From: Bacteroidales bacterium
GTDB lineage: Bacteria > Bacteroidota > Bacteroidia > Bacteroidales > Muribaculaceae
Reading direction: 5' to 3'
Assembly (NCBI GenBank): GCA_014800535.1
Contig: JAAVFW010000024.1
Span: 681-64,680, forward strand
DNA: 64,000 nt
In this document: positions 25,348 through 32,700 of the stretch, in pieces
Numbering within the stretch: the first letter of the stretch is position 1
Layout of the letters: every line of letters begins with the position of its first letter
Notes under the pieces: model-generated
Seen by the model: the letters and a program-made list of their open reading frames with translations, nothing else
Database searches by the model: none
Told to the model about the DNA's origin: nothing
Translations under genes and position numbers: made by a program

Positions 25348-26220
25348 ATGGGCAGAGATCCGAAGCATGACTACAGAGGCCGCTCCATCTATCATATCAC
25401 CATCTGCAAAGCCTCCGCTTGTCCCCCTTTCTCTAAAATTTCCGGCTCTCCCGCAAGTCCCTTGGTCTCCAGAACAATTATCGGAGAAATAATCGAACAG
25501 CAGATTCTCAATTTACCCAAACTTTGTCCCTCCCTGCAGATTCTCCAATATGTCATCATGCCGGATCATATCCACTTCGCCATCTTTGCCCGCAATTATC
25601 TTCCGAGAGCCATCGGAAGTTATATCGGAATGATGAAGGTAAAGACAGGACAATTGATAAGGGCCTCATTCCCCGAAATAACCGACATCTTCACTCCCGA
25701 CTTTCACGACCGCTATCTGCTCCCTTCCCACAAACTTCAGACCATCATCAATTATATTCAGGAAAACCCCAAAAGATTGTTGGAAAGAATCCAAAATCCT
25801 CTCTTCTTCCAGCGTCTGAATAATCTTGAAATCAAAGGGACCCAATGGCAAGCCTACGGCAATCTTCAACTGCTGCAAAATCCATTTAAAGGGCCGGTAG
25901 TAATCCATCGATCCGACTCAGAGGCAATATTAACTGCAAAGCATCGCAGATGGAAACACATCTCTGAAAATGGAGGAGTTTTGGTATCCCCTTTTATTTC
26001 TCCTGCGGAAAAGGAAGTCAGGCGACAATGTGAGAACGCAAACGGTAAAATAATTCTTCTTACAAATAAACCATTTCGAGAAAGAGAGAAACCTGCCGCC
26101 CATGATTTTGAGCGTTGTTCCCAAGGACGCCTTCTGATTCTCGCTCCCCAAACCCCTCTCCCCTCAGGTCGTGAAACATTCCTCTACCTTAACTCCATAG
26201 CCGAATCAATAGCTTTATAG
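25348..26220 (+). mobile_element. REP-associated (IS200/Y1-type) HUH tyrosine transposase with C-terminal DprA/SLOG-like domain
   Basis: HDY...YHITI, YVIMPDHIH (HUH; MPDHIH = aa 71-76), FHDR, NYIQENP (Tyr136); extra ~125-aa C-terminal domain. Confidence 0.85.
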
Positions 26221-26983: not shown

Positions 26984-27397
26984 TCATTTCTTCTTTTTGA
27001 AGAATTTTATACGTTTTATAGTATGCCCGATGGCAAATGCTATCATTAAAAATCCAATTTTTCCATGAACGCCTCCTAATGGACTATGCTCATTTTCTAT
27101 GAGCCAATGGATAAATGTTGCAACACCTGATATGAAAGTAAGAACATACAACCACCAAAGTATGCGCGTCGGTACTTTAAGTTTGCTAAATTTTGTAAGC
27201 CACTTTTTCCATTGAAAATGAAGATAAATATGCCATACAACAAGACACATGAACGGCAGTGCCACGATGATATGGAAAATAACCGGGAAGAAACCACTGC
27301 TTGATGTCGCTTCCAATTGTATGCTTGATGCGAGGACTATCGGCAGAAGGATTGCTAATGTCCAATCGCATATCTTTAATTTTTGTGCCTTTGTCAT
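26984..27397 (-). CDS. DUF4405-like His-containing membrane protein (cytochrome b-like), internally duplicated
   Basis: Four TM helices; H..(13-14)..H pairs (FHII...WHIYLHF; VHGKIG...IGH); SSI/ISG repeat. Confidence 0.7.
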   Translation of the reverse strand: MTKAQKLKICDWTLAILLPIVLASSIQLEATSSSGFFPVIFHIIVALPFMCLVVWHIYLHFQWKKWLTKFSKLKVPTRILWWLYVLTFISGVATFIHWLIENEHSPLGGVHGKIGFLMIAFAIGHTIKRIKFFKKKK

Positions 27398-27441
27398 ACC
27401 GCAAAGTTAAGGATAATTTGCGAGAAATAAAATGAATACAT
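27395..27441 (-). promoter_or_regulatory. Leaderless promoter-start module, copy B
   Basis: TAACTTTG-CGGT-ATG; homologous to 26760-26806. Confidence 0.65.
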
Positions 27442-27514
27442 CAAGGTCATTGACTTTGAAGATGCAACAGTCGCGGATTTTGCGACGGCACTCCCTTATG
27501 TACAAAACATAATG

Positions 27515-27542
27515 AGGGGCGCAACCGTGTGGCTGCGCCCCT
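27515..27542 (-). terminator. Terminator hairpin after the LRR gene
   Basis: AGGGGCGCAACC-GTGT-GGCTGCGCCCCT. Confidence 0.65.
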
Positions 27543-27567
27543 GAATTAGGTTGTCGAGATGTATGGT

Positions 27568-29127
27568 TTACTTAATTGCGATTTTCTTCACAATGTCGCC
27601 CTGACGGATGATGTATATCCCGGCGGGGAGATTCTTGGAGCTATCTGCAACCTTAACACCGTTGATGGTGTACACTTCGATCGGCAGAGCCATGTTGATT
27701 TCGCCCTCTTCCGTAGCAGGAATTGCTTCTATGCCGGTATTAACGTTTATGGCTTGAATATCATAGAAATAACTCCACGGTGCAGTCTTTCCGTAAGCCG
27801 ACACGCTCTCAGAGGGAACATAAAGCGTAGCCGAATCGTAAGCATCAACAGGGAAAAGGTCACGTTCTGCACTTATCGGTTCTGTAACATAGCATGTTAC
27901 GCTCTTTAGAGCATTACATCCATTCCAGACACGTTTACCAAGAGTTGTGACGGTGGTGGGAAGAGTCAACGTAGTGAGACCTTCACAAAAGGCGAAAGCA
28001 TCGTCAGTGATTTCAGTTACCCCCTCAGGAACTACAAAGTCCGGGCCCACAGTCATTGGAACGTAATAAAGCATATCGTTTCTGCGGGAATATACGCAAC
28101 CATTCTCTATTTTTGAATTGTAGGCATCATACCCGATGCTGACCACATCCTCTCCGAAAGGATTAGATATGGCGTCGGGATAACCTCCTTTTTTAAGATT
28201 AGTACCCCAGAACAAGCCCTCACCTACCTCAGTTACCTTAGTGGGTATAAGAACCTCCTGCAGTCCGGTACATCCTCCGAAAGCCTCCTTGTATATAGTT
28301 GTCACTGACTCCGGAATTATTATCTGCTTTAAACCACTACACCCTAAGAAAGCCTGTGCACCGATTACTGTAAATGATTCCGGAAGAACGACTTCTGTAA
28401 TATTTTCACAATCTGACATACAGACCCAGTTTATTCCAGTGACTCCTTGAGGAATCTCTAATTTGCCTGTATATTTACCTGACACCCACGGATATGGGTT
28501 TGAAGAGGAAGGAGCAGCCCATATTATTCCCTTTTCAGCATCTACCGTTTCGTCATCTTGGATAGTCCATCGACCTTTTTCGTTCATGCTGAAGTAACCG
28601 TTGTTCTCATAAGCAGCAACCCTATAAAGGTTTTTAGTATTGGCGAAAGCCCCGGACGCAATTTCACAATTTTTGGAGAGTAGCATCACGTCATGAAGGT
28701 TCGTACAATCTTTGAACGCATTCTCCCCAATTTTTTCAACCGACTCAGGGATGATAAGCCATTTTAGATTTTCATTGGAGTAAAAAGCATCTTCTTCAAT
28801 GGTTGTGACAGTTTCCGGAATAACAATCTCAGACGCACCACTCGTCTTTATGAAACCACATCTACCGATTGTTGTAAGAGTATATTTCTCACCATCCTTT
28901 TCAGGGTGAGACGGAAGAATCACTCTTCCGGATACTTTATTACCGGGTGACCAGAACGGGATATCATAAATATTCACACCATAATAACCTGAAGCAGTAG
29001 CACAAGTCTTGTTCTCTTCATCGAGTACCACATACTCGATGTTCTGACCTTCATACTCGTACAAAAAGGCCCAACCCGGGAGTGCAAAAAGCACGCTCAT
29101 AATGAGAAGTAGATAATTTTTCATCAT
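27568..29127 (-). CDS. BspA-like (TpLRR/LRR_5) leucine-rich-repeat surface protein with T9SS C-terminal domain
   Basis: Likely start ATG 29127 (MMKNYLLLIMSVLFALPGWA signal peptide); repeated IPESVxxIGxxAFxxCxxL; TLYVPxES..Y....W; CTD VYTING...LPAGIYII...KKIAIK. Confidence 0.9.
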   Translation of the reverse strand: MMKNYLLLIMSVLFALPGWAFLYEYEGQNIEYVVLDEENKTCATASGYYGVNIYDIPFWSPGNKVSGRVILPSHPEKDGEKYTLTTIGRCGFIKTSGASEIVIPETVTTIEEDAFYSNENLKWLIIPESVEKIGENAFKDCTNLHDVMLLSKNCEIASGAFANTKNLYRVAAYENNGYFSMNEKGRWTIQDDETVDAEKGIIWAAPSSSNPYPWVSGKYTGKLEIPQGVTGINWVCMSDCENITEVVLPESFTVIGAQAFLGCSGLKQIIIPESVTTIYKEAFGGCTGLQEVLIPTKVTEVGEGLFWGTNLKKGGYPDAISNPFGEDVVSIGYDAYNSKIENGCVYSRRNDMLYYVPMTVGPDFVVPEGVTEITDDAFAFCEGLTTLTLPTTVTTLGKRVWNGCNALKSVTCYVTEPISAERDLFPVDAYDSATLYVPSESVSAYGKTAPWSYFYDIQAINVNTGIEAIPATEEGEINMALPIEVYTINGVKVADSSKNLPAGIYIIRQGDIVKKIAIK

Positions 29128-29507
29128 TTCATAAGTTAAATAAATTGCCAAGGCGACTCCCCTCATTGGCGTTAGGTTAGAAAAAGAAAAGTGTGAGAGC
29201 CGTACTTGTTGCCCGTTCCGCTTTCTGAGGCCCTGGAATTGCCCATCATCGTAGAACGGACAACGCAGAAGCCTCACACCGAATATGTGTAAATACACCG
29301 ACCACAGACGCTCACGCGCCCGCTGCCGGAAATATATACATACCCACAAGGCATCTACCGTTGTCTCATTCTTGACGATGATTGAAATTTTCCAGGTTTC
29401 AGAAAGCCAAGAAAGAGCGTCAAGTAAACGCTTTTCAAAATGTCTGCCGACCCTCCCACATTGCCCTTGACCGGGCTTCCGCGGTGCGATCTGCATTTGC
29501 AAAATTA
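29128..29507 (-). promoter_or_regulatory. Promoter plus ~370-nt structured 5' leader (putative transcription attenuator)
   Basis: TAATTTTG at 29507-29500; terminator stem 29279-29254/29218-29191 followed by TTTTCTTTTTCT; competing long helix with 29407-29350. Confidence 0.7.
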
Positions 29508-29603
29508 CGAATTTTTTTCCGAATAATACTTATCATCTTAAGAAAAAAAATTGCTATCTACGCACATTCCCTTTTTCAGGATATGACCGCATGCAGAAAT
29601 AGG

Positions 29604-29636
29604 CAACGCTCCGTCGGGGAGACCGACGGAGCGTTG
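29604..29636 (-). terminator. Hairpin downstream of the Schlafen-domain gene
   Basis: CAACGCTCCGTCGG-GGAGA-CCGACGGAGCGTTG, perfect 14-bp stem. Confidence 0.75.
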
Positions 29637-29711
29637 GAACTTATTTTACGAGTGGAAGGTTTGTTTCGAGGCAGTCCTATTTCGCGAGGAAAGGTTATTT
29701 CAGGGGAAGGG

Positions 29712-32700
29712 TTATTTCAGGGGAATACCTATCTTTTCGAGGTATTCCTTTTCTTCCTTGCCGTAGGCTGTCGACAACTGGAAACCAAGGCTTGTGCGCC
29801 TGTGGTTACGCATCCTTTTGAGCTCTTCGATATGGTCTGCCGGGATAATCTCACATTCTCCCATTTGGGCAAATTCCACGTCAGAGAGTGTATTGCCTTT
29901 ATCAGTGATTCGTGTCTCCTCAATTTCAGAGAGGTCGTCAAGGCGGAAGAATCTCTTTCCACGATCGTCAATGTAAGTTGTCAGCAATGCGTCATCCTTA
30001 CGCGCAGGCGACACAAACAAGGGGTCAGTGCCGGCAAGCATCTTATGCCGTCCTCCGGCAGACTGTTTGAGAATCTTCGACATCGGCACCTTCAGCACCC
30101 TTCCGTCGGGATAGACCATCATCATGAAGCCATCCTTCTCCTCATCGTGGATTGCAAGGGTAAGTTTCCCCTCATCCCATTCAACATCGTCGAGCTTACT
30201 CCATTCATTATTATCATAAATGCGGAAATAAGCCGCCGTGTCGACACCGTAACCCTCAAGCCAATTCTCAGTGATGTTAGAGCGCAGATGAGAGGTTGGA
30301 ATCTTCTTTTCTTCATCATCAGCGAAAACCCTCGTGCGCTCCTTTTGCTCGCGGTCGGTTGAAGAATCATCAGCCGTTTCCACCTCTGCGTCGGCAATTA
30401 TGGCATCGTTTTCAATGGGGAATCTTTCAAAATCCCTGTTATCCATAATTTCGCGCAGCTGGTTTACGTCGTCGATAGCGTAGGTCGAGCTTCCCTCACG
30501 CAAGAAATACTGACGTGTCGTCCGCAGTTGAACCGGAGTCTTCGACGGAGCCACCTGAATGGCATAAATCCAATATTTCCCTGCTTCAGGATGGTGAATT
30601 TTGATTGAAGCATTCACTGCATCGCCAAGGGCAAAACGTATCTGATTTCTAACATAAAGGTCAAACTTATCACGACTATTGTCGAAGAACGGCAGGTCAT
30701 CATCAAGACCCTTAGCCGTTCCGGTGTCGTAGACACCGAGATAAAGTGTTCCGCCATAGGCATTGACCATACCGCAGATAACCTTCATGATATTGAAAGT
30801 CTGCTCCTCAAGATTGGGCTGCATGCCGTTTTCGGGCGGGAAGACAATCGACGACTTAAACTCTTTTGTCTGGTTCTCCTGTCCGAATGAATAGATTACG
30901 GGAATCTCAATATTGATGTTCTTGAGCTGACGAATTTCCGAGAGGATACTGTTCTGATGTTCAGAAAGGTTAAAGCCGTCCGCCATGTTGTAAGACAGCA
31001 TCAGACGTGCCAATTTACCCACGATATGCCCCGGACCGTAATGAGACACCAAATCCCAGAGATAGGAATTATTTTCCTGTTTACCCATGCTGTTGAGAAT
31101 CTTCACCTCACAGATGCGCTGTTTCAACACGGGGAATTTCTCAACAATATCGGCATTTCTCACGCTCAGTTTATCGAACTCAGCCTCGTCAACCTTACCG
31201 TTTTTACCATAATCCTCAAGCATACAGAGAAGAGAACGCCGCTGGTCAAGGTAACGCTGTGTCGCCTCATCCTCAATCATACCGGCGAGGATGCACGCCA
31301 CCGACAGATAACCGTAAGCCTTCGTATTGTCGTCTTCGACAACCGCCTTATGGTCGAGCAGACATATCATCTGGTTGATATAATCGATGTCAAACTGGTC
31401 TTCGGAAACCGACATAGCCTCTTCTGCAAGCTCGTCTTCACTCTCCTCATAAACTTCACCTCCTGCAAAATCCTGAAGTAAAGACTCAGCAGCTTCGGTG
31501 ACATTAACATCATAATCGGCAGGACCGATCACCTCAGCCTGAATTGTCTGTATTCGCTGATAAGATGTCACCCTGACACGCACAGTGTCGCCGAGACGAT
31601 AATCGAAATCAGGTGTTGAATCGGGCACAAAGACCCCATAGCCGTAGGCAGTGATGCCGAGCATCACATGGTTTGTCTCATCATGATAAACAAGCCGGCA
31701 ATCGCTCTCCTCATCATACTGAATTGTTGAACGAATGTAATCATCCATCAACGAGATGGAATCAAAATAGTAACGTTGCACATCATTGTAAGGACTCCCC
31801 TCGGAATTTACCCTTGTGCGAAACAGCAACGGCTTCCCATCAATACAGAAATTCTCGAATGTAAACCGAGGGTTATAATGGAAAATTCCGTTGGAACCCT
31901 TGTCGACGTAGGTGTCAATCCAACCCTCACCCTGATACATATCATCTTCGATCCGGCAATAGAATCGGTTGGGATGATCCATGTCGGAATCCTGATAAAG
32001 CACTCTGACAGTCACTTCCGTGCCGACGTCAGGACTGATTTTGCGTGGAGCAATCCGCTCCGTCAACGTGCGTTCCTCAAAGAGAGCAAGTTCAACCTTA
32101 CGCCACCAATTTCGCCAGGTTGATATTTTTGACGACGGGCTGATCGGATATTTCGTCGGATTATCAAGAAACAGCTGAATGTTATGCCAGGGAAGGAAGT
32201 CTGAGGGCAAGACATTACGCTCGCGTCCCGAAGAGGTGGCACGCGCAATCGTCATACCGTCGTTGCTGACCGTGAATCTCACCTTTTCAGTCTCGTAAGC
32301 ACGGGTTGTAAAGGTCGACATCCGGCTTTTAAGAAGTGACATCTGATAAGCGAACAACTCCGTCTGACCGAAATTCATGTCCCAATTCACCTCACGGCTT
32401 ATCGACTCCGAACTTACAAGAGCATTAAACGCCTGCTCCAGCAATGAATCGGAGATTGAGATGCCGAGAGCCCGCTGCCCCAGCACATTTTTACTTCTCA
32501 CAAACGAGAGATAGTGAAAAAGCATCGACTTATAGAGAGGGACATCTACATCCCGACCATCTGACATAAGCAGATAATAACATATCGCGCGCACCATGCG
32601 ATGAAGAAGTTGCGTCGTGTGGTCATCTTCTACAAAAGCGAGACGATTGACCTTATCGCGGTTGCTCATTATGTAATATTGAATGAACCCTGCGAATGCC

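Follow-up and report, generated by a model that had tools for sequence, protein, structure and literature searches.

A widespread two-state RNA leader upstream of accessory, mostly exported-protein genes in Muribaculaceae and other Bacteroidales: a candidate cis-acting transcription attenuator

Within a 64,000-nucleotide (nt) stretch of a Bacteroidales genome from the family Muribaculaceae (GenBank assembly GCA_014800535.1, contig JAAVFW010000024.1, positions 681 to 64,680; hereafter "the window"), the minus strand carries a 373-nt leader in front of a BspA-type leucine-rich repeat (LRR) gene. This leader is a member of a new family within a known kind of mechanism, which is widespread and absent from Rfam 15. 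Copies of the leader conserve two alternative folds, namely a long rod and a series of three hairpins ending in an intrinsic terminator; the RNA is the sense strand, and the leaders keep a set position and orientation with respect to genes. The element is probably a cis-acting transcription attenuator, i.e. a portable cassette in which a promoter is combined with a two-state leader and a terminator. Termination itself is inferred, as are the default state and the trigger.

The promoter box, terminator arms, U-run, complementary arms, and GNRA hairpin all lie on the minus strand where an initial annotation, made from the letters of the window alone, had placed them. Folded as a whole, the leader reaches -146.4 kcal/mol (z = -5.6, 0/100 shuffles as good). 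It is preceded by TAATTTTG (29507-29500), a predicted promoter box of the Bacteroidetes -7 TAnnTTTG type, and begins with SL1, a three-helix, 5'-terminal hairpin at the predicted transcript start (29495-29445; -23.9 kcal/mol, z -3.0). Next comes a two-state domain of 250 nt (29436-29186) that folds either as a rod or as three hairpins. The rod, or antiterminator state, is the minimum-free-energy (MFE) fold and spans the entire domain with 98 pairs, 16 of them G-U; in this state, the terminator 3' arm is paired with 29426-29410, and the first U's with an A-run at 29435-29432. The initial annotation had described an imperfect antiterminator of about 55 bp, and its pairing stands, including that of GAATGAGACAACGGTAGATGCC with the terminator 5' arm (as found in the pair list of the predicted fold), but its length does not, as it belongs to this single 98-pair rod.

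The three-hairpin state consists of HP1, an apex GNRA hairpin, and the terminator. HP1, an anti-antiterminator hairpin (29430-29352; -24 kcal/mol, z -2.45), is built from helices 29430-29423:29359-29352 and 29412-29406:29376-29370, and its loop is arm E (29407-29375). The latter is complementary to E', the terminator loop (29252-29220), these two 33-nt arms being matched at 73% by Watson-Crick pairs and at more when G-U pairs are included. The apex hairpin (29324-29303) has a GTGA loop at 29315-29312, within the GGGCGC-GTGA-GCGTCT hairpin of the initial annotation (29321-29306). The terminator hairpin (29279-29191; -41.2 kcal/mol, z -4.5) has arms at 29279-29254 and 29218-29191, arranged as a base (29279-29270:29201-29191), an upper stem (29263-29254:29218-29209), and an inner hairpin (29244-29241:29231-29228), and is followed by the U-tract TTTTCTTTTTCT (29190-29179), whose first residues are the ones engaged by the 5' A-run in the rod. 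As modelled, this layout is that of a classic 1:2 / 2:3 / 3:4 attenuator, plus a 1:4 pairing that closes the rod. HP1, the rod-closing helices, SL1, and a small post-terminator hairpin (HP4, 29170-29146) are features beyond those of the initial annotation.

Covariation in homologous leaders, a check that the initial annotation had proposed, revealed compensatory changes that maintain both folds across 70 homologous copies, so that its terminator and mutually exclusive antiterminator are borne out. Covariation was counted on a 70-copy alignment (A2), and significance was estimated against 500 shuffles and against slid partners. For the rod, 90.6% of cells were paired, compared to 80.2% in shuffled alignments and about 40% with slid partners; double changes were seen in 47 of 87 pairs, compensatory cells numbered 671 vs 235 in shuffles, and the covariation score was 0.345 vs 0.155. 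None of the 500 shuffles reached the rod values, although this count, like the one for the three-hairpin state, overstates significance because kin copies are not independent. In the three-hairpin state, paired cells amounted to 96.9% (93.1% shuffled, about 41% slid), with double changes in 19 of 47 pairs and 144 compensatory cells vs 49, again with 0/500 shuffles reaching these values. Within this state, the terminator upper stem was paired in 99.4% of cells and displayed double changes in 6 of its 10 pairs, and all 8-9 pairs of the apex hairpin had compensatory changes.

The strongest covariation was observed in the E:E' helices, where the four pair types occur at near-equal frequency (e.g. 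columns 35:264, with AU 24, CG 20, UA 20, GC 5). The pairing between the A-run and the U-run also covaries (columns 5:304, AU 53 and UA 10). At column 226, in the terminator 5' arm, 16 copies have a C, and in all 16 of them a G stands both at column 79, the rod partner, and at column 276, the terminator partner; when column 226 is U, columns 79 and 276 are both mixed A/G. Rod U-G pairs are found where the terminator inner hairpin needs a G, with columns 54:244 and 55:243 being U-G in 70 and 62 of the 70 copies, respectively. Hardly any variation is seen in segments that have two alternative partners, while the single-partner arms E and E' vary freely and are always compensated, a conservation pattern that fits two states. 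E and E' drift with compensation because they are the only helices with a single pairing partner; the idea that these hypervariable blocks serve as copy-specific addresses was considered and rejected as unnecessary.

A larger set of 121 copies shows on which strand this structure is maintained. The sense strand outfolds the antisense strand in 121/121 copies (mean -125.8 vs -97.4 kcal/mol), a bias expected from G-U pairs, which points to a conserved structure of RNA and not to a DNA palindrome. Across the same copies, the terminator hairpin has a mean energy of -40.8 kcal/mol (standard deviation 2.5), and at least 7 T are present in the 10 nt after the stem in 107/121. The promoter box, likewise read by the initial annotation, is conserved at a fixed distance across copies: among 90 copies, a TAnnTTTG box is placed 68-82 nt upstream of the core in 54 and about 101-112 nt upstream of it in about 25. 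SL1 begins ~4 nt after the box and folds as one hairpin in 53 of 54 copies, averaging -22.9 kcal/mol with a mean z of -3.0.

To describe the genes around the leaders, we surveyed the 101 copies for which 700 nt or more of downstream sequence was available. Downstream genes were on the same strand in 92 cases and convergent in 2. In 69 of the 101 copies, a same-strand open reading frame (ORF) of at least 70 amino acids (aa) starts 15-160 nt after the terminator (median 59 nt, interquartile range (IQR) 53-68); the others comprise 14 copies with an ORF at 160-500 nt, 9 with a small ORF only, 7 with none, and the 2 facing a convergent gene. Upstream neighbours are found in either orientation (50 same-strand, 37 opposite) and are unrelated, spanning 145 Pfam families among which no regulator or partner recurs. 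Most of the 76 downstream proteins have no Pfam family, the commonest ones being LRR_5 (11) and Big_2 (7), and lipoproteins are common; C10 peptidase, DUF6175, and TRL appear as single cases, along with a few cytoplasmic types (FRG, methyltransferase, helicase). Signal-peptide-like N-termini were detected for 67% of downstream proteins vs 43% of this genome's ORFs, based on one crude rule applied to both. The genome itself encodes at least 13 LRR_5 reading frames and two copies of the leader, the second of which precedes a lipoprotein gene and not an LRR gene, and no ortholog of the LRR protein of the window was detected at E <= 1e-60 among 60 congeneric species. These LRR counts and missing orthologs indicate that the leader is tied to accessory, mostly exported cargo and not to BspA genes as such. 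The tie to this particular LRR gene implied by the initial annotation thus does not extend to the family, as the cassette precedes many unrelated genes.

Conservation continues beyond the terminator, into HP4, the small hairpin with loop motif GRGAGY (here GGGAGT). By energy alone, HP4 is weak in the window (-8.3, z -0.4). Across copies, 82 of 114 have the motif G[AGT]GAG[CT] ~30 nt (IQR 26-34) past the terminator stem, compared to 7.3 expected, and in 62 of these 82 it lies within a hairpin loop. The HP4 loop is complementary to GGCUCUC of the terminator 3' arm (29202-29195), which is an open internal loop in the rod, and in divergent relatives the two sites change together (GTTCCC/GGGAAC, GTCCCC/GGGGAC, CTCTC/GAGAG). 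Cognate duplexes have a mean of -6.24 kcal/mol vs -5.17 for non-cognate ones, with 0/5000 permutations reaching the cognate mean, in data derived from metagenome contigs of which some may be chimeric. These sequence patterns suggest a contact between the HP4 loop and the rod internal loop that would be made only in read-through transcripts.

A cis-acting attenuator would work as follows. Transcription would start a few nt after TAATTTTG, at the foot of SL1. In one state, HP1, the apex hairpin, and the ~30-bp terminator with its U-run would form, and RNA polymerase would stop ~55 nt before the start codon. In the other state, the terminator 5' arm and loop would be taken up by the left arm, the 3' arm by the far-left segment, and the first U's by the A-run; the terminator would be blocked, and transcription would continue through HP4 into the gene. 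When transcript prefixes were folded, HP1 was the MFE structure (95% of its pairs) in prefixes ending before the terminator 5' arm, and was replaced by the rod once arm E' had emerged. The mean energy of the rod is -124 kcal/mol, vs -109 for the upstream fold plus terminator, i.e. the rod is favoured by about 15 kcal/mol. Because HP1 forms first and the rod is favoured later, the outcome would hinge on HP1 opening in time. Read-through would be the equilibrium outcome, and termination would require HP1 to persist until the terminator 3' arm emerges, possibly through a factor binding HP1 or its conserved loop, in a PyrR/TRAP-like logic. Alternatively, elongation speed or pausing may decide, with the polymerase outrunning strand exchange. 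A further set of energies obtained with enforced pairs (-91 and -93 kcal/mol, worse than unconstrained) was set aside as an artefact of forcing isolated pairs.

Several observations weigh against this attenuator model. The terminator state is the MFE structure of the full leader in about 1% of cases, and since it is almost never the MFE at equilibrium, termination needs either kinetics or a factor. HP1 and the terminator base are so conserved that covariation is almost absent from them, although their pairing is compatible with the model: the HP1 helices are paired in 99.5% and 98.8% of cells with few changes, and HP1 pairing is beyond proof by covariation because its bases hardly vary. For the terminator base, part of the sequence was preset by the search pattern with which copies were gathered, although the set collected by BLAST shows the same near-invariance. 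No sensor was found, whether as a conserved leader ORF, a recurrent neighbouring regulator, or a junction resembling a ligand pocket; for a leader peptide in particular, no shared frame was visible by eye in the alignments, and the ATG in GAATGAGAC opens ORFs of 2, 5 or more codons depending on the copy. Finally, about a third of downstream proteins lack a signal peptide, hence "surface-protein regulon" describes an enrichment and not a rule.

Given that the rod is the MFE fold in essentially all copies and displays the strongest covariation, it could itself be the functional form and act after transcription, as double-stranded RNA in the 5' untranslated region that is cut by RNase III or protects the mRNA and so sets message stability or processing, much as Correia repeats do in Neisseria, with the terminator-like fold being incidental. 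Its near-continuous helices of 23, 7, and 22 pairs are long enough for RNase III, and the possible pairing of the HP4 loop with the rod internal loop would suggest a structured read-through mRNA. Yet a function of the rod alone would need neither separate stem covariation, nor a U-run, nor specifically placed U-G pairs. The terminator upper stem has compensatory changes of its own and co-varies separately from its rod partner, the U-run follows the stem in most copies, and the rod U-G pairs sit where the inner hairpin of the terminator needs a G. We therefore consider a purely post-transcriptional role unlikely.

The unit could also be a stand-alone small RNA gene of ~315 nt, from SL1 to the U-run, that is expressed constitutively and acts in trans, with downstream genes transcribed by leak-through or from their own promoters. 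This would be consistent with its own predicted promoter and strong terminator, with the 16/101 copies in which a downstream same-strand ORF is small or missing and the 2 that face a convergent gene, and with the central parts of E and E' being common to many copies and thus able to pair between them. Such a gene would not, however, explain the tight spacing to the start codon or the 92 to 2 orientation, nor the conservation of HP4, which lies past the terminator and out of reach of a terminated small RNA. In the window, there is no second TAnnTTTG box between the U-run and the ATG from which the gene could be transcribed, and no target-like complement was detected elsewhere in this genome. 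A trans-acting small RNA gene hence seems to us quite unlikely.

Leaders of this family are broadly distributed. A BLAST search with the window's leader gave matches at 70-84% identity in 35 of the 36 congeneric species sampled, and a single genome frequently had 5-13 of them. Contigs of one sequencing run, probably of DNA from a community rich in relatives, covered the conserved parts of the element only (29181-29507). An exact terminator pattern matched at least 120 loci in genomes titled Muribaculaceae, Paramuribaculum, Sangeribacter, and Amulumruptor, and was present in 95/301 genomes and 23/35 genera of Muribaculaceae, while a reversed control gave 0 matches. With a covariance model (R1) built from copies in this analysis, relatives were further detected in 21 of 120 other Bacteroidales families (one genome each), 5 of them strong and the rest being shorter variants of ~175 nt. 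The same model recovered the second copy in the window's own genome (contig C8:44621-44845, minus strand, L233; 43 bits, E = 3.6e-9), a divergent and shorter leader that BLAST searches with the leader of the window had missed. A TAAATTTG box of its own accompanies this copy, which lies directly before a lipoprotein-like gene (...IIVLLTSCGKIKNG). Rfam 15 yielded no match at E <= 10 in 27000-31000, and none relevant at gathering score anywhere in the window; a clear Rfam hit would, according to the initial annotation, have removed the novelty. No published description of the element was found in the literature searched, which is not proof of absence.

The core sequences of 89 copies fall within a narrow range of identity (median 0.77, 95th percentile 0.83), with only 4 of 3916 pairs reaching 0.90, and these four most similar pairs (91-95% identical) have mostly unrelated flanks and downstream genes. 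Taken together, this narrow identity and the unrelated flanks of the closest pairs indicate a cassette that is portable but old, and without bursts. Some genomes contain tandem same-strand arrays of leader plus gene, with one or two genes between successive leaders (e.g. L045 and L061, 1.65 kb apart on one contig, and three copies on contig C105 of genome G007).

A portable cassette of this type might be nothing but a selfish or mobile repeat, either a palindrome like that of a miniature inverted-repeat transposable element (MITE) or a mobile promoter cassette, without any regulated switch and with a structure kept for mobility or by descent. The leaders occur as dispersed copies, with BLAST matches numbering up to 13 or more in one genome, their closest pairs have mostly unrelated surroundings, and the cargo gene of the window lacks an ortholog in the 60 congeners where the leader itself is 70-84% identical. 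We nevertheless judge this very unlikely. Bursts of near-identical copies are missing, the folding asymmetry between strands holds in every copy, orientation and distance to genes are fixed, and the element lacks symmetry, promoter and SL1 being found at just one of its ends. No associated transposase was found among upstream neighbours, and compensatory changes maintain two alternative RNA folds. The Correia elements of Neisseria offer a point of comparison, as they are also dispersed hairpin repeats upstream of many genes, are co-transcribed, may provide a promoter, and form double-stranded RNA that RNase III can cut. Correia elements are, however, MITEs of ~100-155 bp with terminal inverted repeats and target duplications, and are found in either orientation, unlike the ~360-nt, asymmetric, strictly oriented unit described here, which has a conserved terminator alternative and no recent bursts.

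An invertible promoter (inverton) of the Bacteroidales type was also considered and rejected: the promoter is not enclosed by the inverted repeat, which is itself imperfect and dependent on G-U pairs, the sense strand folds better throughout, and integrase genes are the upstream neighbour in only 2/87 cases.

The initial annotation had likened the switch to the attenuators of phage P4 CI or P1 C4, which are under the control of antisense RNA (in P4, CI RNA with seqA/seqC). Long complementary arms do flank the terminator, and kissing in trans between copies would in principle be open to the exposed loops E (in HP1) and E' (in the terminator). Control by a trans-acting antisense RNA is nevertheless extremely improbable, as the arms pair in cis, their variable parts are copy-specific, a search of this 68%-complete genome for trans RNAs found arms D, E, A, B, E', and C neither repeated nor complemented elsewhere beyond 12-18-nt chance matches, Rfam returned neither C4 nor any other match, and no phage genes or prophage surround the locus. 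The P4 and P1 RNAs do resemble the leader in linking premature termination to long complementary segments near a terminator, but are trans-acting, processed from a precursor, and prophage-borne, whereas the leader is cis-paired and chromosomal.

Closer parallels to the cis-acting attenuator proposed here are the leaders of Escherichia coli trp (1:2 / 2:3 / 3:4) and Bacillus subtilis pyr, the latter controlled by PyrR. These are likewise promoter-proximal and end in an intrinsic terminator whose 5' arm has an alternative upstream partner, itself lockable in an earlier hairpin, and the decision is made during transcription. Unlike trp and pyr, the leader has no leader peptide, known binding protein, or binding-site repeats, and its antiterminator is a complete 98-pair rod engaging the terminator loop, 3' arm, and first U's. 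The unit also differs from trp and pyr in being multi-copy, with its own promoter, in front of unrelated genes, and in Bacteroidales, where such leaders are uncatalogued. Riboswitch expression platforms, such as those of the pbuE adenine and c-di-GMP riboswitches, similarly present two exclusive, covarying folds and occur in many copies before functionally related genes. In contrast to these, no multi-helix junction with conserved unpaired bases that might resemble a ligand pocket is found here, nearly all conserved bases lie in two-partner helices, and there is no Rfam match. Among systems of leader-dependent processive antitermination based on NusG paralogs (UpxY at Bacteroides capsule loci, LoaP in Firmicutes), read-through of a leader terminator also decides expression, and UpxY acts on long 5' leaders before surface-structure genes in Bacteroidales. 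However, UpxY is specific to the locus under its control, which also encodes it, whereas the cassettes described here include no such gene and have an RNA-intrinsic alternative fold.

The junction between terminator stem and U-run was found to be occupied by a mobile element in one relative. The closest relative of the window's leader (84% identical; L010) is split by a 1406-bp IS110-family element (L010:92-1497), which encodes a 352-aa DEDD transposase (Pfam DEDD_Tnp_IS110 and Transposase_20), exactly between the terminator stem (...GGCTCTCACGT) and the U-run. Among 80 metagenome relatives of this transposase (L152-L231), the sense flank ends in CGT in 57/61 and is followed by a T-rich run in 56/66, and several of these flanks are leaders of the same family or leader-like. 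Judging from these flanking sequences, we suggest that an IS110 clade may target the stem/U-run junction of leader terminators.

Muribaculaceae and their relatives are dominant gut bacteria, in which the control of fast-evolving surface and secreted proteins is largely unknown, and a conserved, multi-copy RNA switch absent from Rfam would add a regulatory layer for such host-facing proteins. It is conceivable, although we put this forward only tentatively, that a single signal (be it an RNA-binding protein specific to the family, a cue from the envelope or from secretion, or the speed of RNA polymerase) flips hundreds of copies between rod and terminator across the order, and thereby sets the variable exported-protein repertoire of gut Bacteroidales. 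In such a regulon, HP4 would lock the read-through form via the rod internal loop, and the IS110 clade would have evolved to insert at the stem/U-run junction. The leader family represents a defined object for Term-seq and reporter experiments, and a natural set of covarying two-state RNAs for the study of co-transcriptional folding. It also provides an annotation marker for accessory exported-protein genes, and may explain the landing sites of an IS110 clade.

In the window, the leader sits between a 1342-aa gene (33740-29712) and the LRR gene (29127-27568), both on the minus strand. The LRR gene encodes a 519-aa protein with an N-terminal signal peptide (Pfam LRR_5, E = 1.8e-51), and its start codon is the ATG at 29127 or 29124, with the U-run 63 nt upstream. 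Its frame is open from 29502 into the gene, i.e. for 125 codons 5' of the ATG and through the whole leader, whereas the corresponding in-frame opening in 73 other copies is 58 codons long at most, with a median of 6. Because the frame is closed in these other copies, we interpret the open frame in the window as due to chance and not as an N-terminal extension. The C-terminus of the LRR protein resembled by eye a sorting tail of the type IX secretion system, but NCBIfam gave no match at E <= 0.001, and no such tail is claimed. Further downstream, a 290-aa ORF on the plus strand (25348-26220) has a weak match to IS200-like Y1 transposases (E = 3.4e-5) and is larger than a typical IS200 TnpA; no link between this ORF and the leader family was found. 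On the other side of the leader, the only clear domain of the 1342-aa protein is Schlafen AlbA_2 (E = 2.6e-12), with no NCBIfam family, and this gene is followed by a 14-bp GC-rich hairpin (29636-29604) that is strong and terminator-like on both strands.

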